Shown here in pieces: positions 1 to 52,596 of a stretch of 64,000 nucleotides of DNA (position 1 is the stretch's first letter; each line of letters begins with the position of its first letter). The translations under genes and the position numbers were made by a program. The notes beneath the pieces are model-generated. The model saw only the letters and a program-made list of their open reading frames with translations. It ran no database searches and was not told the DNA's origin. The stretch spans positions 39,607 to 103,606 of the forward strand of contig JAMIFM010000011.1 of the NCBI GenBank assembly GCA_035906255.1. Direction: 5' to 3'. The DNA is from Bacteroidia bacterium. Lineage in GTDB: Bacteria; Bacteroidota; Bacteroidia; UBA8524.

Positions 1-1338
1 ATGTTGATAGTGAAACCCAATGCTACCGAACTGGTGCGCGGGTTTATTCCCTCAATACCCAATAGCAGTGCCTTATACATTGCAATAGGTATTATAGGAG
101 CTACGGTAATGCCGCATAACCTCTATCTTCATTCGTCGTTAGTGCAAACCCGAAGGTTTAACCGTGCCGACGGCGGATTGAAAAAAGCCATACGTTTCAA
201 CTTTATCGATTCGGCCGTAGCACTTAATCTTGCCCTGTTTGTAAATGCGGCCATCCTTATTTTGGCTGCTGCCGCCTTTTACAAACGCGGTCTGCACGAT
301 GTGGCCGAAATACAAGATGCCCACCTGTTGCTAACCAACATCTTTGGTACGGCAGCCCCTGCCCTGTTTGCCATTGCACTGATCGCCGCAGGACAAAGTA
401 GTACCATTACAGGTACATTGGCCGGACAAATTGTAATGGAAGGGTATTTAAATCTTCGTATCCGTCCATGGTTGCGTCGTATTCTTACCCGTTTAATAGC
501 CATTGCACCTGCTGTTTTTACTATTACATATTTTGGTGAAGAAGAACTGGGTAAATTACTTATACTTAGCCAAGTAATACTTAGCTTACAATTGGGTTTT
601 GCCATTATTCCCCTTATACATTTTGTGAGCGATAAAGCCAAAATGGGCGAGTTTGTAATCAAGCCTTGGGTAAAAGTTTCTGCATGGATAGCTGCGGCAA
701 TAATTGTGGGACTGAACGTAAAATTGGTAATTAATGAACTTAACGGCTGGATTGATAATGCAGGAAGCAATGCTGTTTACATTTATCTGTTTGTAATTCC
801 CATTGTAGTTGCAGCGGGCATTTTACTGTTATACATCACCTTTAGTCCCTTATTTAAAACCTCAAAAACGCTTAAGGCTACCGTACCGCACGGAAAAGCC
901 CTTGAATTGGGCGAGCTGATGCTGAAACACTATAAAAACATTGCAGTTACTATTGATTTCTCTGAAATGGATAAAATTGCCATAGAAAATGCTATTTCGC
1001 AAGGGGGTAAAACAGGTTCTTATACACTGATACATATTGTTGAAAGCGCGGGTGCAAGTGTAATGGGTGAAGACATTGAAGATTTTGAAACAGCAGAGGA
1101 TATGAATAACCTTACCAGCTACCAAAACCATTTGAAAGCATTGGGATACAATACCGAAGTACAAATTGGCTACGGTAACCCTGCAAAAGCCATTTCGGAA
1201 ATTGTAAATAATTCTGCTGCTGACTTAATTGTAATGGGCGGTCACGGCCACAAAACATTTAAAGACCTTTTGTTTGGGGCTACGGTTGATACTGTAAGGC
1301 ATAACGTCAAAATCCCTGTGTTGGTGGTGAGGAAGTAA
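1..1338 (+). CDS. mntH: NRAMP-family divalent metal (Mn2+/Fe2+) transporter with a C-terminal universal stress protein (UspA) domain. 5' end truncated by the window edge.
   Basis: The ORF is open from base 1. The translation shows the typical Nramp TM segments and the consensus MPHNLYLHS motif. The last ~140 aa (KNIAVTIDFS...LIVMGGHGH...VPVLVV) match the Usp fold with a G-x2-G-x9-G(S/T)-like ATP-binding stretch. Confidence 0.85.
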   Translation: MLIVKPNATELVRGFIPSIPNSSALYIAIGIIGATVMPHNLYLHSSLVQTRRFNRADGGLKKAIRFNFIDSAVALNLALFVNAAILILAAAAFYKRGLHDVAEIQDAHLLLTNIFGTAAPALFAIALIAAGQSSTITGTLAGQIVMEGYLNLRIRPWLRRILTRLIAIAPAVFTITYFGEEELGKLLILSQVILSLQLGFAIIPLIHFVSDKAKMGEFVIKPWVKVSAWIAAAIIVGLNVKLVINELNGWIDNAGSNAVYIYLFVIPIVVAAGILLLYITFSPLFKTSKTLKATVPHGKALELGELMLKHYKNIAVTIDFSEMDKIAIENAISQGGKTGSYTLIHIVESAGASVMGEDIEDFETAEDMNNLTSYQNHLKALGYNTEVQIGYGNPAKAISEIVNNSAADLIVMGGHGHKTFKDLLFGATVDTVRHNVKIPVLVVRK

Positions 1339-16169: not shown

Positions 16170-16556
16170 TGTATGTAAGCCCCCCCTCTCCTAAGAGAAA
16201 CACAAAGGGTATATTATGCCAACCGCACCCTTCTGCAAGCTCAGGAGAACTGCCCCGCACTTGCTCAACTATCGTCATTGCGAGGAGGCCGTCTTCGGCT
16301 GACGTGGCAATCTGTTTGCAGCCCACCGTCAATGGTCAACAGTTTTTTAGTATTTAGATTTTAGTGTTTATACCAACGGATTGCTTCGGGAAGACCCTCG
16401 CAATGACGGGGAAGAGCAAGTCCCCACAGGGGATTTAGGGGTATTGTCATGCTGACGTAGGAAGCATTTTTGCGCAACGGGGTAACACAATTGTTATAAG
16501 GTTCTTCGCTGCGCTCAGAAGGACAGTATGGGTTCTTCGGCAAGTTCAGAATACAA
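16170..16556 (-). repeat. Partial mosaic repeat in reverse orientation (F', B', A', G' modules; C, D and E absent).
   Basis: Reverse complement of the segments in 1343-1990, for example caacggattgcttcgggaagaccctcgcaatgacggggaagagcaagtccccacaggggatttagg. Overlaps the spurious ORFs 16127-16357, 16144-16332 and 16361-16543. Confidence 0.75.
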
Positions 16557-30352: not shown

Positions 30353-30455
30353 GGGTCAGTAAAAATAAGGCTTTTACCTATAAGACAGTTAATACGCTCA
30401 AAAAGCTGTACCCGTTTTATTTTTTTACAATCGATTACCAAACCGCCCTTCTTAT

Positions 30456-31290
30456 CGCACCCTTCGACAAACTCTATCCTTAAACAGGCTCAGGATGGCA
30501 GCCGCACTGCTACGTTGTTGGTGGAGTTCCCTTTAGGGATTGAACAGAGCTTGTTGAAATAGAATTTAGGGGCTGTTTGACTCACCCCTGATTTTTGTTT
30601 TGGTCGATTTTCTGATATTCGCCCCTCTCTTACAAAGAGAGGGGAAGTGTTGGGTTATCAGACAAGGTTGATATGTTTTGGGTGAGTTAAATGTTTGTCT
30701 GCCGCACTCGCACAACTATCGTAATTGCGAAAAACCGCTTTTGGGTTTTGAAGCAATCCGTTTGACACCTCCCTTAGTCCCTCCTTACCAGCCCACTAAC
30801 CATCCAAGGAGGGAAACAGCCGCACCCTTCGGCATTCTAAGGATGGCAGCCGCACTGGTACGTTGTTGGTGAAGTTCCCTTTAGGGCTTGAACAGAGCTT
30901 GTCGAAGTATAATTTAGGGACTGTTTGACTCACCCCTGATTTTTGTTTTGGTCGACTTTCTAATATTCGCCCCTCTCGTACAAAGAGAGGGGCGAATATC
31001 AGGCAAGGTTGAGCTGTTTTGGGTGAGTTAAATGTTTGTCTGCCATACTTGCTTCACTATCGTCATTGCGAGGAAGCCTTCTTCGGCTGACGTGGTAATC
31101 TGTTTGCAGGTCAACAGTCCACCGTCAATGGTCAACAGTTTTTTAGTATTTAGATTTTAGTGTTTATACCAACGGATTGCTTCGGAAGACCTCGCAATGA
31201 CGGGGAAGAGCAAGTCCCCACAGGGGGATTTAGGAGTATTGTCATGCTGACGTAGGAAGCAGCTTATCCCGTTTTGATAACACAATTTAA
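30456..31290 (-). repeat. Extended mosaic-repeat array (about 835 bp) in reverse orientation, with a local tandem duplication of the D'-C' modules.
   Basis: 30480-30660 and 30830-31010 are near-identical (caggatggcagccgcactg...ttccctttaggg...tgactcacccctgatttttgttttggtcga...cccctctc(g/t)tacaaagagagggg). They are followed by B', A' and G' fragments. Overlaps the spurious ORFs 30678-30872 and 30344-30562. Confidence 0.8.
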
Positions 31291-33244: not shown

Positions 33245-33298
33245 CCGCTCAGCTACGCCACCTCTTTACTTTTTGATTTTTAATCACTTATTAGTTAA

Positions 33299-33460
33299 CA
33301 TCAGCATGACAATACCCCTAAATCCCCTGTGGGGACTTTACCAACGACGGGCAAGTGCGGCTGTTTCCCTCCTTGGGTGGTTAGTGGGCTGGTAAGGAGG
33401 GACTAAGGGAGGTGTCAAACGGATTGCTTCAAAACCCAAAAGCGGTTTTTCGCAATGACG
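33299..33460 (+). repeat. Short mosaic repeat copy (A fragment plus E module).
   Basis: tcagcatgacaatacccctaaatcccctgtgggg followed by ...ggctgtttccctccttgggtggttagtgggctggtaaggagggactaagggaggtgtcaaacggattgcttcaaaacccaaaagcggtttttcgcaatgacg. Overlaps the spurious ORF 33168-33395. Confidence 0.75.
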
Positions 33461-33618
33461 AAAATCGAAACACAAGCTCAAATCGAACATCGTTAAATCC
33501 TGAGATTATTTTATTTCCAAAGAAAATTGGCCTTCGAAGTACCGGCTAACTAAAACTAATCCCACTTCTTCAATAAGGAAAATCAAAATAACTTTTAAGT
33601 GTTTCAAATAATTTATAA

Positions 33619-36947: not shown

Positions 36948-37100
36948 GTCAGTATGTTCAACCTTTTGTTCCCCTGTCATTCCGAGACGCAGCGAGGAAA
37001 CTTATTGCACGCGTGTTAACAAAACGCGATAAGTTGCTTCCTACGTCAGCATGACACGGCTATACGTCATTCCGAGGGTCTCTCCGAAGCAATCACACAT
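36948..37100 (+). repeat. Short mosaic repeat (G module plus degenerate A fragments).
   Basis: cctgtcattccgagacgcagcgaggaaacttattgcacgcgtgttaacaaaacgcgataagttgcttcctacgtcagcatgaca...cgtcattccgagggtctctccgaagcaatc matches the G/A modules of 1343-1440. Confidence 0.6.
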
Positions 37101-43521: not shown

Positions 43522-43537
43522 TACTTCCTAAGCCTAC

Positions 43538-44200
43538 TAAAGGGTGCGGCGGTGGTTGGTAAGGAGTGATTAAATTATATTAACAAACGGGATAAGATGC
43601 TTCCTACGTCAGCATGACAATACTCCTAAATCCCCTGTGGGGACTTTACCAACGACGGGCAAGCGCGGCTGCCCTCCTGAGAATGCCGAAGGGTGCGGCT
43701 GTTTCCCTCCTTGGGTGGTTAGTGGGCTGGTAAGGAGGGACTAAGGGAGGTGTCAAACGGATTGCTTCAAAACCCGAAGATGGTTTTTCGCAATGACGAT
43801 AGTTGAGCGAGTGCGGCAGACAACATTTAACTCACCCAAAACAGCTTAACCTTGTCTGATAACCCAACACTTCCCCTCTCTTTGTAAGAGAGGGGCGAAT
43901 ATCAGAAAGTCGGCCAAAACAAAAATCAAGGGTGAGTCAAACAGCCCCTAAATTCTACTTCAACAAGCTCTGTTCAAACCCTAAAGGGAACTTTACCAAC
44001 GACGTACCATGCGGCAGATTTCCTGAGCTTGCCGAAGGATAGTGCCTGCTAAAGGGTGCGGCGGTGGTTGGTAAGGAGTGATTAAATTATATTAACAAAC
44101 GGGATAAGATGCTTCCTACGTCAGCATGACAATACACCTAAATCCCCTGTGGGGACTTGCTCTTCCCCGTTATTGCGAGGCCTATCCGAAGCAATCAGCT
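43538..44200 (+). repeat. Mosaic repeat array (G, A, E, B-end, C, D modules plus a second G-A copy), about 660 bp.
   Basis: The 60-nt block cctactaaagggtgcggcggtggttggtaaggagtgattaaattatattaacaaacgggataagatgcttcctacgtcagcatgacaata occurs twice (43538 and 44052). Internal modules are near-identical to 1343-1990 and 51325-51915. Overlaps the spurious ORF 44126-44365. Confidence 0.8.
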
Positions 44201-44252
44201 TGTGGACTGTTAACTACCTATCGGATTGTTCAAAATCAAAAGATGGTTTTAA

Positions 44253-45548: not shown

Positions 45549-45881
45549 TTGCACATGAACCCATACCCAAGCCCGCAGGCTGCCCTTGATGATTTTAGCA
45601 GGGTGATTGACCAACTTGCTGCCGATTTACAATTGTATGCCGCCCGACAGCAGCCCAACTACACCTACATGGATAAGCAAAATATGCTGATACGCCACCT
45701 TACCGAGATATACAATGGCATTACTACCCTGCAACACTATGATGCTTGGACGGCTGTTGAAACCCGAATGCTAAGCTTTGTGCGGCAAGACGCTAACCTT
45801 TGCGGACACATGATACGCTTGCGCACAAAACCCGAAGGGAATAATTTTTCGCTGATTGGATATGACCCGTTTAACCCCTAA
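45549..45881 (+). CDS. Hypothetical small protein.
   Basis: 110 aa ORF with reasonable codon usage. No motifs. Confidence 0.35.
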   Translation: MHMNPYPSPQAALDDFSRVIDQLAADLQLYAARQQPNYTYMDKQNMLIRHLTEIYNGITTLQHYDAWTAVETRMLSFVRQDANLCGHMIRLRTKPEGNNFSLIGYDPFNP

Positions 45882-45882
45882 C

Positions 45883-45990
45883 TTATACTTCGACAAGTTC
45901 TGTACAAGTCTTAAAGGGAACTTTACGCACTACGAACGAGTGTGGTAGTTTCCTGAGCTTGCCGAAGGGTGCGGAGGAAGGCTTCGGAAA
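45883..45990 (+). repeat. Isolated D-module copy of the mosaic repeat.
   Basis: cttatacttcgacaagttctgtacaagtcttaaagggaactttacgcactacgaacgagtgtggtagtttcctgagcttgccgaagggtgcgg matches the D module (1749-1850, 51668-51760). Confidence 0.7.
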
Positions 45991-47821: not shown

Positions 47822-48811
47822 ATGCTTCGCCAAAACCCCAATTTACGTTTACAGGTAAACACCCTTGCCATTGGTGCCCTTATTATGGTGGGTAAATTTG
47901 TGGCCTACTTTCTCACCCACTCAAACACAATACTTACCGATGCCCTCGAGAGTATTGTAAATATTGCAGCAGGTATAATGGGGGTATATAGCTTGTATTT
48001 AGCCGCCAAACCCAAAGATGCCGACCATCCGTATGGGCACGGAAAAATCGAGTTTATTTCAGCTTCGGTTGAGGGGACTTTAATTGCCGCAACAGGATTG
48101 ATGATGATAGTAAAATCAACCATCAACTTTTTTCAACCCAGCCAATTAACCAACCTCGATATTGGATTATATATCACCTCGGCAGCAGGATTACTAAACT
48201 ACTTATTGGGATGGCGTTTAGTATCACAAGGAGAAAAAACAAACTCGTTAACTCTTGTTGCCAGCGGAAAGCACCTAAAATCTGATGCCTACACTACCAT
48301 TGGCGTACTGGCAGGCTTAGCAATACTGTATTTTACAGGATTTAACTGGTTGGATAACGCCATTGCAATGGCAATGGGCGGGCTAATTGTTTATACAGGG
48401 ATTGGGATTTTGCGCCGCTCAGTAGCGGGTATTATGGACGAGGCCGATACAGGGCTGCTGGTAGATGTGATTAAAATTGTGAATGATAACCGCAGACCCG
48501 CTTGGGTAGATATACATAATATGCGGATTATTAAATACGGCAGCAGCCTGCACGTTGATTGCCACATTACCCTGCCTTGGTATTTTACCATAAAAGAAGC
48601 CCATGCAGAGGTAGAGGCCGTTGATAATTTAATAAGCAAGCACTACCCGCAAGGGGTTGAGTTTTTTATTCATACCGACGGTTGTATTGAAACGTCGTGC
48701 AAAATATGCGCGGTAGCCGACTGCAAGGTGAGGCAACACCCGTTTGAAAGCAAGATAGAATGGAGCCTTGATAATGTAATGCAAAACAAAAAGCATGGGT
48801 TAACCCCATGA
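47822..48811 (+). CDS. Cation diffusion facilitator (CDF) family metal efflux transporter.
   Basis: 6 TM followed by a cytoplasmic domain. Metal-binding motifs HSNTILTDALESIVN and HLKSDAYTT (HxxxD pairs in TM2 and TM5). Confidence 0.85.
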   Translation: MLRQNPNLRLQVNTLAIGALIMVGKFVAYFLTHSNTILTDALESIVNIAAGIMGVYSLYLAAKPKDADHPYGHGKIEFISASVEGTLIAATGLMMIVKSTINFFQPSQLTNLDIGLYITSAAGLLNYLLGWRLVSQGEKTNSLTLVASGKHLKSDAYTTIGVLAGLAILYFTGFNWLDNAIAMAMGGLIVYTGIGILRRSVAGIMDEADTGLLVDVIKIVNDNRRPAWVDIHNMRIIKYGSSLHVDCHITLPWYFTIKEAHAEVEAVDNLISKHYPQGVEFFIHTDGCIETSCKICAVADCKVRQHPFESKIEWSLDNVMQNKKHGLTP

Positions 48812-48835
48812 GCTTATACCTCCCTGTTCTTCTTA

Positions 48836-49030
48836 CCGCACCCTTTAGCAGGCACTATCCTTCGGCATTCTCAGGATGGCAGCCGCGCTTGCCCGTCGTT
48901 GGTAAAGTCCCCACAGGGGATTTAGGGGTATTGTCATGCTGAGCGATAGCGAAGCACCTTATCCCGCTTTGTGAACACAGTTGTTATAAGGTTCTTCGCT
49001 GCGCTTAGAAGGACAGAGAGGGGCGAAGTT
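48836..49030 (-). repeat. Mosaic repeat in reverse orientation (D'-end, A', G').
   Basis: cagcaggcactatccttcggcattctcaggatggcagccgcgcttgcccgtcgttggtaaagtccccacaggggatttaggggtattgtcatgctga...gttcttcgctgcgcttagaaggacag. Confidence 0.75.
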
Positions 49031-49186: not shown

Positions 49187-50014
49187 TTGATAATCCGTGT
49201 ATTACTTGCTGTTTTTATACTAACACCACAACTAATTGGGGCGCAGGTAAATTTAGTGCCTAACGGTGATTTTGAAACCAATACTACAAAGAGCTTTCCG
49301 TGCAGTTGGTTGGTTGATGACGGTAATATTAACGATTATTTGTACGATTGGTTTACACCCATTGCTACTACTACAGATGTGATGAGCAACTATGCCGATA
49401 GTGATTGCTGGGCACGCACTCCTAATACGGGTGAAGGTTTTATGTTGCCGCATTCGGGCAGTGTGATGGTTGGTTTTATTAATTACTCGCCTGATGGCGG
49501 CTGCCAGCCCAATGAGTGGCATGAATACTTGAGTGTGGAACTGACACAGGCACTAACCCCGGGTAATATGTATTGCTTGGAGTTTTATGTGGCCTTGGGG
49601 GCAAACAGCCTGTATGCCACCAATAATATTGGGGCATTATTTACCGTAAACAGCCCTGAAAATAACAGTTGTACGCCCATTTTTAAGAAACCACAGGTAA
49701 ATGTATCACAAGTGGTTAAAAATACAAACCAATGGTTGCGTATAGAGTTGGGCTTTTTGGCCGATTCGGCATACAGGTATTTAACACTCGGTAATTTTTA
49801 CAGTCATGCTGAAACAATTATTGAGGAAATGAAAGAGAAACCTGCATTAACACCCGAAGGGACTCCTGTGATAACGGATGAGGATGTTGTTGTTGAATAT
49901 GAAGAAGAGGAAAGCACAGGAGTTAGTCACCTTGCATACTATTTTATTGACGATGTGAGATTATACCTATGCCCATCGGCAAAAATTACTCCTGCAAAAT
50001 CATTAGGAAACTAA
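49187..50014 (+). CDS. Hypothetical secreted protein with an N-terminal VPNGDFE-type (carbohydrate-binding-like) region and an acidic C-terminus.
   Basis: Signal peptide. The NLVPNGDFE motif is common to Bacteroidetes surface-protein N-domains. No catalytic motifs. Confidence 0.45.
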   Translation: MIIRVLLAVFILTPQLIGAQVNLVPNGDFETNTTKSFPCSWLVDDGNINDYLYDWFTPIATTTDVMSNYADSDCWARTPNTGEGFMLPHSGSVMVGFINYSPDGGCQPNEWHEYLSVELTQALTPGNMYCLEFYVALGANSLYATNNIGALFTVNSPENNSCTPIFKKPQVNVSQVVKNTNQWLRIELGFLADSAYRYLTLGNFYSHAETIIEEMKEKPALTPEGTPVITDEDVVVEYEEEESTGVSHLAYYFIDDVRLYLCPSAKITPAKSLGN

Positions 50015-50021
50015 CTACGGG

Positions 50022-50771
50022 TTAATCACCCCCTCCGCATCCTGAGCATCCGCTACAACCCGAATCGCCGTCTCCCGAACTGCCTGATGAGCCTGAATCG
50101 CTGCCAAAAGCGGCATCAAACCCACCTGTTGACCCACTGTCAAAATACCCGAAGTCCGTTCCGTAATAGGCTCCGCCGCCCGTTATTACCCCTGCGGCTT
50201 CGTTGCGTTTCAATTCATCATCAAATACCGTTAAATACTCACTGCTAAAATTAGGCAACAGTATAATGTTATTACCTAATAGTGCTCTAATTTCACCATC
50301 CTGCTTGTTTAGTTTATACTTTTCGTCTGCGTTTTTAATAACTGTATTAAGTTCAGTTGCAACATCAACTCCGGCAGGGGTATATGTATAGCCGCCTATT
50401 AAGACACGTTGCAACCAAGTGCGGTAAAAAAGACCACCTATATGAGGGGTTTGGGCTATTTGTCGCTTAAACCGTTTGGTGAGGGGCCTTATTATGGTAA
50501 TGTAATTTTTTAGTGAGGCTTGCAATCCCTCATTAAATCTAAAAGAGTTTAAAAAACTTTCTTCGTATGCAGATGCTTTGTAGTTATTGTAATTAGGCCC
50601 TGAGCTTACATACGGGTATTTTGCATTGTTTTTCTCAACCTCCACAATAGTAAGCACGCCTTTAAGCAGTAAATCCATAAAGGTGTACCGTATAAATAAT
50701 TTATGGGTGGTATTGCCTTTACTTATAATAAAACTGGTTTCAGCCGGTGTAAGTGATTTTAATAACTCCAT
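50022..50771 (-). CDS. Hypothetical protein with a C-terminal Gly/Ser/Cys-rich tail.
   Basis: 249 aa. C-terminus is ...GGGAYYGTDFGYFDSGSTGGFDAAFGSDSGSSGSSGDGDSGCSGCSGCGGGD. Separated by 4 nt from the upstream DUF1399-like gene. Confidence 0.4.
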   Translation of the reverse strand: MELLKSLTPAETSFIISKGNTTHKLFIRYTFMDLLLKGVLTIVEVEKNNAKYPYVSSGPNYNNYKASAYEESFLNSFRFNEGLQASLKNYITIIRPLTKRFKRQIAQTPHIGGLFYRTWLQRVLIGGYTYTPAGVDVATELNTVIKNADEKYKLNKQDGEIRALLGNNIILLPNFSSEYLTVFDDELKRNEAAGVITGGGAYYGTDFGYFDSGSTGGFDAAFGSDSGSSGSSGDGDSGCSGCSGCGGGD

Positions 50772-50775
50772 ACAT

Positions 50776-51279
50776 TTAGTTAGGTTTTCGTATCAGCCAA
50801 AACCTGTGCCTGTTTACACGGGTAAAATTAGTTTCTTTAAATCGGATTTTTGCAGCAGGCCAAAGGTGTGTAGGCGGTGTTTTTCCAAAATGTTTTTCAT
50901 ACTCAGCAAACGTTAGGGCATACCAATCAGTAAACTTTTCGCCTTCCGCTATTCCGCCCTCGGTAGGAGTATGGTGTATAATTTGCTGCAATATTTTAGG
51001 GCAAAATACATCCCAATACTCACGGGTATATAATAAGTGTAAATGCCATACTTGGTCTATCTCGTCGCTTGGTGTGAGTGGTTTATTACTTACACACAGC
51101 AAAAACATAAACTTTTTATATTCGTGTATAGCTTCGAGGGCAAAAGCCAAATCCCAATTGTTTTCTCTTGCCAGCCTTGCACTAAACGGAAACGCAGCAG
51201 CAGGGTTATCAGGGTCATAATCCAGCAAGCGTTGCCACAAAGGGTTCTCTGTTATCATTTTATTGAGATTATAATACAA
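50776..51279 (-). CDS. DUF1399 / GRDP (glycine-rich domain protein)-like domain protein.
   Basis: The motif DEIDQVWHLHLLYTREYWDVFC matches the DxDLIWHxHxLxPxxY...C signature I recall for DUF1399. 167 aa. Confidence 0.5.
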   Translation of the reverse strand: MYYNLNKMITENPLWQRLLDYDPDNPAAAFPFSARLARENNWDLAFALEAIHEYKKFMFLLCVSNKPLTPSDEIDQVWHLHLLYTREYWDVFCPKILQQIIHHTPTEGGIAEGEKFTDWYALTFAEYEKHFGKTPPTHLWPAAKIRFKETNFTRVNRHRFWLIRKPN

Positions 51280-51324
51280 TTTTAGAGTTTATTATTTAGA
51301 GTTTAGTTACCTGTACCGCTCCTC

Positions 51325-51915
51325 TGTCAGCATGACAATACCTCTAAATCCCCTGTGGGGACTTGCTCTTCCTCGTCATTGCGAGGTCTTCCGAAGCAAT
51401 CCGTTGGCATAAACACTAAAATCTAAATACTAAAAAACTGTTGACCATTGACGGTCGACTGCTGACCTGCGAGCAGATTGCCACGTCAGCCGAAGACGGC
51501 CTCCTCGCAATGACGATAGTTGAGCGAGTGCGGCAGACAACATTTAACTCACCCAAAACATCCCAACCTTGCTTGATAACCCAACACTTCCCCTCTCTTT
51601 GTAAGAGAGGGGCGAATGTCAGAAAGTCGACCAAAACAAAAATCAGGGGTGAGTCAAACAGCCTCCCTAAATTCTACTTCGACAAGCTCTGTTCAAGCCC
51701 TAAAGGGAACTTCAACAACGACGTACCAGTACGGCTGCCATCCTGAGAATGCCGAAGGGTGCGGCTGTTTCCCTCCTTGGGTGGTTAGTGGGCTGGTAAG
51801 GAGGGACTAAGGGAGGTGCCAAACGGATTGCTTCAAAACCCAAAAGCGGTTTTTCGCAATGACGATAGTTGAGCAAGTGCAACAGCCATCTTGAGCCTGC
51901 CGAAGGGTGCGGTTG
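51325..51915 (+). repeat. Second complete mosaic repeat copy (A-B-C-D-E-F), about 590 bp.
   Basis: Collinear and highly similar to 1400-1990. Overlaps the spurious ORFs 51416-51634, 51441-51746 and 51616-51810. Confidence 0.85.
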
Positions 51916-51926
51916 CCCTAAAAAAC

Positions 51927-51962
51927 AAAACCCGCCTTTACGGGGCGGGTTTTGCGGGTAGT
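51927..51962 (-). terminator. Rho-independent terminator for the heme-oxygenase gene (caaaacccgccccgtaaaggcgggttttg plus T-run on the minus strand).
   Basis: 12-bp GC-rich inverted repeat immediately 3' of the 52000 stop. Confidence 0.55.
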
Positions 51963-51999
51963 TTAAAAATTACACACAGCCTGTGTGCAAGGTTTTATA

Positions 52000-52596
52000 T
52001 TAGTTTGCCAATCCGCGAGATTGGATAAACATTTGTGTCATAGCATCAAAAGTAGCAGCGGCACCGGCTACCATTTTATCTTCGGCAGCGGCATCAGTAG
52101 CTACGTTTAGCAATACTTGCTGAAATGACTTCCAACGTGGGCCTACCATATCGCCGTAGCAACCGTAAAAATTAAACTCGTTTCCGGTAGCTGCCGCAAT
52201 AGTTTCGTTTTTGGCAAGCTGGCGGGCAATTACGCTACCGCCAAGTGTGCTGCCCTCAAGCACATAATAAGTACCCATAGCCGCATGAAAATCAGCTAAA
52301 TCAAGGCTAATATCATTGGTTGGATAATCAGCAGGGTTTAAACCCAATACCTCAAGGTCTTTTGCAAGAGCAGCCGTTTTTTTGCGACTGTCAAACTCAA
52401 GCCCGTCAAGGTTTTTCACTTGTGGATTTTGCTCCAAAGTTTCCTCAACCAACTTGTGGATGCGGTAGTTGTTAATTACCAATAATTTGTATTCATCAAG
52501 GGTAAGCTGACCGCTCATTATTTTGTTAGAGAAGCCCACTTCTTCAATCCTGTCGTGGTGCGGACGTGTTTCTGTTTTTAGCCTTTCGAGTATCAT
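52000..52596 (-). CDS. Heme oxygenase-like (biliverdin-producing, HemO/HugZ-unrelated canonical HO fold) protein.
   Basis: 198 aa. N-terminal LKTETRPHHDRIE and helical pattern typical of bacterial heme oxygenases. Confidence 0.65.
   Translation of the reverse strand: MILERLKTETRPHHDRIEEVGFSNKIMSGQLTLDEYKLLVINNYRIHKLVEETLEQNPQVKNLDGLEFDSRKKTAALAKDLEVLGLNPADYPTNDISLDLADFHAAMGTYYVLEGSTLGGSVIARQLAKNETIAAATGNEFNFYGCYGDMVGPRWKSFQQVLLNVATDAAAEDKMVAGAAATFDAMTQMFIQSRGLAN

Follow-up and report, generated by a model that had tools for sequence, protein, structure and literature searches.

A putative split form of the glycine-rich-domain protein module in a Bacteroidia bacterium, with a DUF1399-related domain and a cysteine-repeat tail encoded by adjacent genes

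The glycine-rich-domain proteins (GRDPs) of plants, which carry the DUF1399 domain, affect stress tolerance and development, and their molecular activity is not known. In AtGRDP2, DUF1399 is combined with a C-terminal glycine-rich domain in which Cys residues are interspersed, with the consensus [CG]GGGCGG[GC] (PMC4299439). Cys-rich tails of the TIGR04222 type have recently been proposed as substrates of protein-level chemistry resembling that of ribosomally synthesised and post-translationally modified peptides (RiPPs). TIGR04222 proteins with such tails are often encoded beside an MNIO (DUF692) gene and were proposed to be protein-sized MNIO substrates; MNIO enzymes modify Cys residues in bufferins, and one third of the genomes with TIGR04222 genes are without MNIO (PMC12452194).

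Here we describe a locus at which a domain related to DUF1399 and a Gly/Ser/Cys tail are encoded by two neighbouring genes. The locus lies in a stretch of 64,000 nucleotides from a Bacteroidia bacterium (contig JAMIFM010000011.1, positions 39,607 to 103,606 of the forward strand), which is referred to as the window; all coordinates are positions within it. Gene A encodes the domain and gene B, directly downstream, encodes a protein that ends in the tail. Comparison with related loci suggests that gene A and the tail of gene B are very probably functionally coupled, as a split module of the GRDP type. Within the literature searched, both the coupling of domain and tail across bacteria and the split form in Bacteroidota appear to be undescribed; the families themselves are already catalogued.

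The A domain, the gene B tail and their coupling

An initial annotation of this DNA had placed two open reading frames (ORFs) on the minus strand, at 50776..51279 and 50022..50771 and 4 nt apart, and had read them as a split GRDP architecture. Both ORFs were located as claimed, with the stop codon of gene A and the ATG of gene B 4 nt apart on the same strand. To compare this arrangement, 80 loci holding relatives of the A domain were sampled, their ORFs were called and these were searched with profiles of A and B; an A domain was present in 79, which come from at least seven phyla. In 29 of the 79 loci, all of Bacteroidota type, an A protein of 160-190 aa is followed directly by a B-family protein, and in two others (L021 and L047) the tail gene is directly upstream of A, so that 31 loci are split. 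Domain and tail are joined in a single protein in 42 loci. The short fusions (20 loci, 238-395 aa) consist of the A domain, usually two transmembrane (TM) helices and a Gly/Cys tail, with examples from Polaribacter, Flavobacterium bernardetii, Mucilaginibacter, Oceaniferula and Fimbriimonadaceae. The long fusions (22 loci, 460-560 aa) have a TIGR04222 membrane domain, matched at 87-151 bits (E 1e-24 to 1e-44), between the A domain and the Gly/Cys tail, and were found in Cyanobacteria, Planctomycetota, Verrucomicrobiota, Methylococcaceae, Abditibacterium and some Hymenobacter. Three loci were undecidable, being truncated or otherwise unclear, and three (L003, L034 and L056) had no tail gene nearby. 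In the natural protein of locus L069 the A domain is followed by ∼45 residues ending CGCGGCGGGCGGCGG, with nothing between domain and tail.

The stop codon of A and the start codon of B overlap or abut in 28 of the 29 loci with a downstream tail gene; the overlap is 4 nt in 16 of these loci and the remaining ones range from -13 to 0 nt. Such overlaps are characteristic of translationally coupled genes. When the ORFs of the 80 loci were clustered all against all, no third conserved neighbour gene emerged. The proposal of a split GRDP architecture, and the expectation that the two genes would co-occur in other genomes, were therefore borne out by the fused equivalents, the split loci and the Gly/Cys tail of plant GRDP.

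Gene A, on the minus strand at 50776..51258, encodes a predicted soluble, all-alpha protein of 160 aa that falls into PF27765 (UCP032817-like); residue numbers below refer to this protein. The mechanical ORF, 50776..51279 on the minus strand, gives 167 aa from a TTG at 51279. The true start is almost certainly the ATG at 51258, since an identical database protein (P0001) is 160 aa long and the homologues align from this position. PF27765.1 has a precomputed match on P0001 and on all 120 listed homologues, and several relatives carry the NCBI label 'glycine-rich domain-containing protein'. The motif DEIDQVWHLHLLYTREYW...C, from which gene A had been assigned to DUF1399/GRDP, is present. That assignment stood at the level of the family, as 37 of 59 aligned homologues match PF07173 (GRDP-like/DUF1399) at E<=0.1, the best at 1.5e-5, but not for the window copy, whose own match is below threshold (E=0.013, 16.6 bits against a gathering cut-off of 22.7). 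The sub-threshold match covers residues 32-89 of the 167-aa ORF (25-82 of the 160-aa protein) and positions 79-141 of the 143 in the model. Gene A belongs to PF27765 and stands outside PF07173, to which it is only remotely related.

The A family is large. A word search returned >887 clusters at 90% identity, and at least 584 stretches were confirmed among GTDB species representatives, with the domain present in Bacteroidota, Cyanobacteria, Planctomycetota, Verrucomicrobiota, Gammaproteobacteria, Armatimonadota and Gemmatimonadota. Identity between phyla is 47-57%. Some 20 positions do not vary in any of the 79 sequences, among them D68, W71, H72, H74, C86, H96 and G101-G102, while E46, H95 and E105 are kept in 77-78 of the 79. 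Conservation of this strength is enzyme-like. An AlphaFold2 model of gene A (pLDDT 87.7, pTM 0.83) has seven helices; it found no fold relative in the PDB (best Foldseek E=1.2), and a PDB sequence-profile search with the gene A profile returned no match.

Departures from the usual architecture were seen at two loci. Locus L048 has A-domain paralogues in tandem, both on the plus strand: 527-1291 is a canonical fusion with a Cys tail, while 1341-2018 is tail-less, has TM segments and has lost the invariant D68 and H72 (VWQLHL against VWHLHL). At L077, in a metagenome-assembled genome (MAG) of Methylococcaceae, a protein of 240 aa (149-871, plus strand) is encoded directly upstream of a long-fusion A protein. 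Its similarity to the A domain is very weak (E=3e-5, ...LWDEFTLFTEEYQVFC...LHHEP), and its C-terminus is a stretch of ∼30 Gly that includes one Cys; a second, degenerate copy of the module is a possible reading.

Gene B is on the minus strand at 50022..50771, with its stop codon at 50022-50024, and encodes 249 aa. Residues 1-196 (50184..50771, minus strand) form a folded carrier domain, modelled by AlphaFold2 with pLDDT >90 over residues 1-190. Residues 197-235 (50067..50183, minus strand) form an acidic linker of Gly, Ser, Asp and aromatic residues (...YFDSGSTGGFDAAFGSDSGSSGSSGDG), predicted to be disordered (pLDDT <50 over 197-238), which holds a conserved FDS motif in the alignment of the relatives. 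The last 14 residues, 236-249 (50025..50066, minus strand), are defined by the alignment as a conserved C-terminal CxxC-repeat tail, DSGCSGCSGCGGGD, and the C-terminal end of the protein as a whole reads ...SGSSGSSGDGDSGCSGCSGCGGGD.

This end of the protein had been described as a low-complexity Gly/Ser/Asp/Cys tail; the composition is as described, but the tail is considerably more conserved than that term implies. A word search gave 76 homologues of gene B, and all 76 end in ...DSGCSGC(S/G)GCGG(G)D or a near variant. Nine tail columns are conserved at >=90% (S232, G233, G238, C239, S240, G241, C242, G244 and G246). A profile of gene B trimmed of its tail was searched against 1.84 billion representatives and yielded 691 matches, 535 of them at E<=1e-10 and nearly all 240-300 aa long, with few shorter. 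When full-length representatives were clustered at 50%, 109 of 118 carried a tail, defined by last 30 residues that are >=60% G/S/C/D and hold at least three Cys, and a Cys-Cys spacing of 3 accounted for 247 of 445 spacings. The body diverges fast (25-35% identity) and the tail motif is retained. These data argue that the tail is a conserved motif rather than chance low complexity.

The body of gene B opens with a helix-helix-hairpin unit of winged-helix-like appearance that bears a near-invariant L(T/S)PAE...DL motif. No Pfam or NCBIfam family model for the body was found when gene B and 53 relatives were scanned, and a PDB sequence-profile search with the gene B profile gave no match. The only consistent matches of residues 1-196 in a PDB fold search were to GOLPH3 and Vps74 (9qpq_B, 3kn1, 2zih). 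Two GOLPH3 structures matched weakly, with a probability of 0.98-1.0, a TM-score of ∼0.43, E=0.012-0.06 and 9-12% identity, and the Vps74 matches were weaker, the E values ranging from 0.012 to 2 overall. A GOLPH3-like fold is tentatively proposed for the modelled body, as a lead and not as a classification. Membership of TIGR04222 was considered and rejected, as neither gene B nor any of the 53 relatives matched this NCBIfam model at E<=0.1 (cut-off 43 bits). Alignment of the tail-trimmed gene B family with the TIGR04222 region of the fused proteins by hhalign produced a match of 17 columns with a probability <1%. The sole link between the two is transitive and weak: both match the start of Pfam DUF2207_C below threshold. 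A sorting signal of the MYXO-CTERM or GlyGly-CTERM type was also rejected, the tail having neither a hydrophobic helix nor a basic end.

Neither gene A nor gene B has a signal peptide or TM helix visible in its sequence, therefore both proteins are presumably cytoplasmic. The short fused proteins appear to keep domain and tail on one side of the membrane. Of 21 such proteins, 17 have hydrophobic segments in even number, with two to four Lys or Arg residues before the first TM helix, almost none in the loop between the two helices, and Lys and Arg again after the second. According to the positive-inside rule, flanks rich in Lys and Arg face the cytoplasm, and from this distribution the A domain and the tail are both predicted to do so, as would be expected from the split pair and from L069, which are free of TM helices. 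In many fused proteins (L018, L020, L024, L025, L035, L037, L038, L045, L055, L058, L061 and L080) a lipobox-like L-(A/T/S)-(G/S/A)-C motif, such as LLTSC, LAGC or ITGC, was observed; it very often ends the first TM helix after the A domain, at approximately residues 180-200, that is ∼180 residues inside the fused protein.

Genomic setting of the pair

The pair appears to be its own transcription unit. A strong hairpin resembling an intrinsic terminator, at 51925-51955 on the minus strand, with a 12-bp stem, seven GC pairs and a T-run, closes the upstream heme-oxygenase gene (52000-52596, minus strand), so that transcription of A-B would start within 51280-51920. A riboswitch or leader upstream of gene A was considered, but the sub-threshold Rfam match to the 'rnk leader' (51919-51988) is explained by the heme-oxygenase terminator.

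On the other side lies gene C (49187..50014, plus strand), which encodes 275 aa with a signal-peptide-like N-terminus. The initial annotation had called this gene divergent and had included it in the unit, and neither description held. Gene C is convergent with gene B, their stop codons being 7 nt apart, and it adjoins A-B in close relatives only (L082-L086); homologues with 60-63% identity have other neighbours. Fifty homologues of gene C were found, and the distant ones carry OmpA, type-B type IX secretion system (T9SS) or Por_Secre_tail domains, which the window copy lacks; from these domains gene C is predicted to be a secreted or outer-membrane protein. The closest named relatives of the A, B and C proteins are Bacteroidota MAG proteins. 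Compared with two close relatives, identity is 79-86% for gene A, 63-64% for gene B and 91-95% for gene C, and all three genes are under purifying selection between close relatives (dN/dS <=0.12). Nei-Gojobori (NG86) dS between gene B and its counterparts L082:7001-7747 and L085:7001-7750 is saturated at 3.4-5.2, against 0.8-1.1 for the flanking genes A and C. This excess may reflect replacement of the allele or a rate that is raised locally, with a dN/dS that is still <0.1.

The gene for a cation-efflux protein of the CDF family, a zinc transporter, is located at 47822-48811 on the plus strand, ∼1.2 kb from gene B, with a repeat cluster and gene C between. Its proximity is suggestive of a metal link, but it is not a conserved neighbour of A-B elsewhere. 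The same applies to the wider neighbours in the window, which comprise a 4HBT thioesterase, the CDF zinc transporter, the heme oxygenase, DUF6498 and DUF3109, none of which is conserved with the pair.

It had also been suggested that the unit is an accessory islet bracketed by repeats. Repeat copies do flank A-B-C, at 48829-49016 and 51320-51915. A repeat search of the window, however, detected dispersed mosaic repeats at these and further sites (1343-1990, 16255-16526, 30448-31287, 33298-33476, 36988-37056, 43532-44206 and 45876-45974), sharing modules of ∼40-225 nt in both orientations that are 80-98% identical and occur in many intergenic regions; some modules hold small hairpins, e.g. TCCCCTGTGGGGA. 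With the repeat families dispersed at at least nine sites in 64 kb, bracketing by two copies is to be expected. The GC content across the unit (0.37-0.46) is unremarkable against a local background of ∼0.42, and no mobility genes were found at A-B-C. A mobile or accessory islet was rejected on these grounds. The A-B-C trio is found in different genomic contexts in close relatives.

A proposed mechanism and its alternatives

Strong conservation of a small domain and of a short terminal motif, next to rapid divergence of the carrier body, is a pattern that resembles an enzyme with a docking or leader part and a core substrate, and a mechanism can be proposed that would build on the architecture, coupling and conservation described above. 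Genes A and B would be translated together into a cytoplasmic module of two proteins that is complete in itself. This module would be the split version of a widespread unit, in which a UCP032817/GRDP-like domain is coupled to a C-terminal Gly/Ser tail with Cys spaced every three residues. As a metal-dependent enzyme, gene A would have D68, H72, H74, H95-H96, E46 and C86 clustered as its active site, whether as ligands or as catalytic residues. Its target would be the Cys residues in the flexible tail of gene B, reached in cis where domain and tail are fused and in trans in the split pair. The GOLPH3-like body of gene B would act as a docking or scaffold domain, comparable to a protein-sized leader, and the outcome would be a thiol-rich element that is modified or carries metal. 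A parallel exists in the proposed MNIO modification of TIGR04222 Cys-rich tails. Taken as a whole, a split module in which gene A is a metal-dependent enzyme acting on the gene B tail is the best explanation that we can offer, and we would give it a probability of about 45%. That the coupling consists of covalent enzymatic modification of the tail by gene A is held tentatively, the odds being somewhat below even.

Several points weigh against an enzymatic reading. The DUF1399 literature covers plant physiology and phenotypes only, with no biochemistry for DUF1399 or UCP032817 proteins, and no mention of UCP032817, PIRSF032817 or PF27765 was found in the literature. The enzyme assignment derives solely from the pattern of conservation, as the gene A model has no relative in the PDB. 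Gene B has no homology to TIGR04222 detectable by profile scans or hhalign. The CxxC-rich tail could, unmodified, be a simple metal binder. The long TIGR04222 fusions have four clear TM segments and a weak fifth hydrophobic stretch, leaving their topology ambiguous, and periplasmic tails were predicted for two modelled TIGR04222 proteins, one of them a 516-aa protein of the Planctomycete Pirellula staleyi (PMC12452194). A periplasmic tail would be separated from the N-terminal cytoplasmic A domain in the long fusions. A compartment shared by domain and tail would be more parsimonious than split compartments.

Among the alternatives, metal handling with no covalent change has the most in its favour, although we consider it less likely than not. 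Here the tail would supply thiolate ligands for Zn(II), Cu(I) or an Fe-S cluster and gene A would be a His-rich partner, the pair, or the membrane-bound fused protein, serving to buffer, sense or hand over metal. CSGCGGCG formally fits the DnaJ-type zinc motif CxxCxGxG, the dominant Cys spacing is 3 with 4-7 Cys within the last 30 residues, and the invariant His, Asp, Glu and Cys residues of gene A could be ligands as well as catalytic. Neither protein has an export signal, so the thiols would stay reduced, the CDF zinc-transporter gene is close by in the window, though not a conserved neighbour, and the related Cys-derived bufferins chelate copper (PMC12452194). On the other hand, ∼50% identity and ∼20 invariant aromatic and polar residues across phyla are rare for simple metal-binding domains, and the surroundings of the pair hold no conserved gene for metal regulation or metal transport and no conserved riboswitch. 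A non-catalytic tail is less probable again. It would be a tether to a membrane or partner (for example through S-acylated Cys), a disordered spacer or a self-association motif, with gene A as a regulatory or binding domain that simply accompanies it and the GOLPH3-like body of gene B binding the membrane in place of the TM helices of the fused forms. The fused forms are indeed membrane proteins, and the split form exchanges the TM or TIGR04222 part for a fold resembling the lipid-binding peripheral proteins GOLPH3 and Vps74; Gly-rich C-terminal tails are moreover common on membrane proteins of the DUF2207 type, and DUF2207_C is the model that weakly matches both gene B and the TIGR04222 region. 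A spacer would not, however, require so strict a CxxC periodicity or a near-invariant terminal motif, L069 joins domain and tail with no membrane element, and the GOLPH3 match is weak (TM-score 0.43, E=0.012). Protein S-acylation of such a kind is, to our knowledge, not established in bacteria.

An exported RiPP or bacteriocin, with gene B as a long precursor whose Cys/Gly/Ser core is heterocyclised in the manner of a thiazole/oxazole-modified microcin (TOMM) or heterocycloanthracin and then released, the locus lying on a repeat-bounded accessory islet, is very improbable and has been largely refuted by the analysis of context. The composition of the tail does resemble heterocycloanthracin cores, one of 53 family members weakly matches TIGR03601 (E=0.0031), repeats flank the unit, and the trio occurs in different contexts among close relatives. 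Yet among the genes conserved beside the pair in the 80 loci, and among its neighbours in the window, there is no YcaO, no dehydrogenase, no MNIO or radical-SAM maturase, and no protease or exporter. A maturase gene of a known RiPP class (TOMM/YcaO, MNIO, radical-SAM or lanthipeptide) was not found next to the pair, the rest of the window and the genome not having been scanned for MNIO. The precursor would have to include a well-folded domain of 196 aa, and in many phyla the tail ends an integral membrane protein. The flanking repeats are dispersed, the GC content is normal, and genes A, B and C are under purifying selection as ordinary chromosomal genes.

The enzymatic reading of the pair extends to a broader proposal, that the UCP032817/DUF1399 domain represents a type of metalloenzyme not recognised before, whose fold has no counterpart in the PDB. 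It would modify CxxC-repeat Gly/Ser tails after translation, either its own in cis or that of a dedicated carrier protein in trans. This is speculative and we regard it as rather unlikely. If true, it would describe a protein-scale RiPP-like system that is independent of MNIO and conserved in lineages as distant as Bacteroidota, Cyanobacteria and land plants, and the plant GRDPs would gain their first biochemical function. Within its large family the window copy is unexceptional, and its value lies in offering a simple soluble system in which the function of the module, from bacteria to plants, can be approached. The split form supplies a clean pair of soluble proteins, the candidate enzyme of 160 aa and the membrane-free carrier of 249 aa, and so makes the question of whether the domain acts on the tail directly testable.

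Comparison with known systems

The tail invites comparison with the zinc finger of DnaJ and with metallothioneins, as CSGCGGCG fits CxxCxGxG and the thiols are dense within a Gly-rich context. In contrast to those proteins, the gene B tail is predicted to be disordered, is terminal, has just 3-7 Cys and gives no zinc-finger profile match. For the body, the N-terminal L-x-x-x-E-x-x-x-L helix resembles the start of GPP34. None of the 53 gene B family members, however, has a GOLPH3/GPP34 Pfam match, and the similarity is weak and at the level of fold.

The MNIO/TIGR04222 proteins and the bufferins share with the window pair an unstructured C-terminal Ser/Gly region with Cys and the logic of a conserved enzyme acting with a Cys tail. 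They differ in that no MNIO gene adjoins the pair in the window or in the 80 related loci, and the candidate enzyme is a different domain with no structural match. The tails of the MNIO type are placed in the periplasm (PMC12452194), while a cytoplasmic tail is indicated for the split form and for the short fusions. Neither GRDP nor a glycine-rich domain is mentioned in the MNIO paper (PMC12452194).

The fused bacterial UCP032817 proteins are closer. Their A domain is 47-57% identical, and the invariant residues and a CxxC/CxxxxC Gly tail are held in common. They are single membrane proteins, while the window encodes two soluble proteins, with an unrelated GOLPH3-like soluble domain in place of the part between A domain and tail. 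The plant GRDPs are larger, at ∼790 aa, and are single polypeptides with an additional putative RNP-1 motif. The window pair consists of two ORFs, with a stand-alone domain of 160 aa and the tail on a separate protein that has a folded domain of its own. Gene A nevertheless has in common with PF07173, and hence with GRDP1 and GRDP2, the core motif around P-x-D...W-H-x-H-x-L...Y, and, since AtGRDP2 carries a glycine-rich domain with interspersed Cys (PMC4299439), the coupling of this domain to a Gly/Cys tail appears to extend from bacteria to plants.

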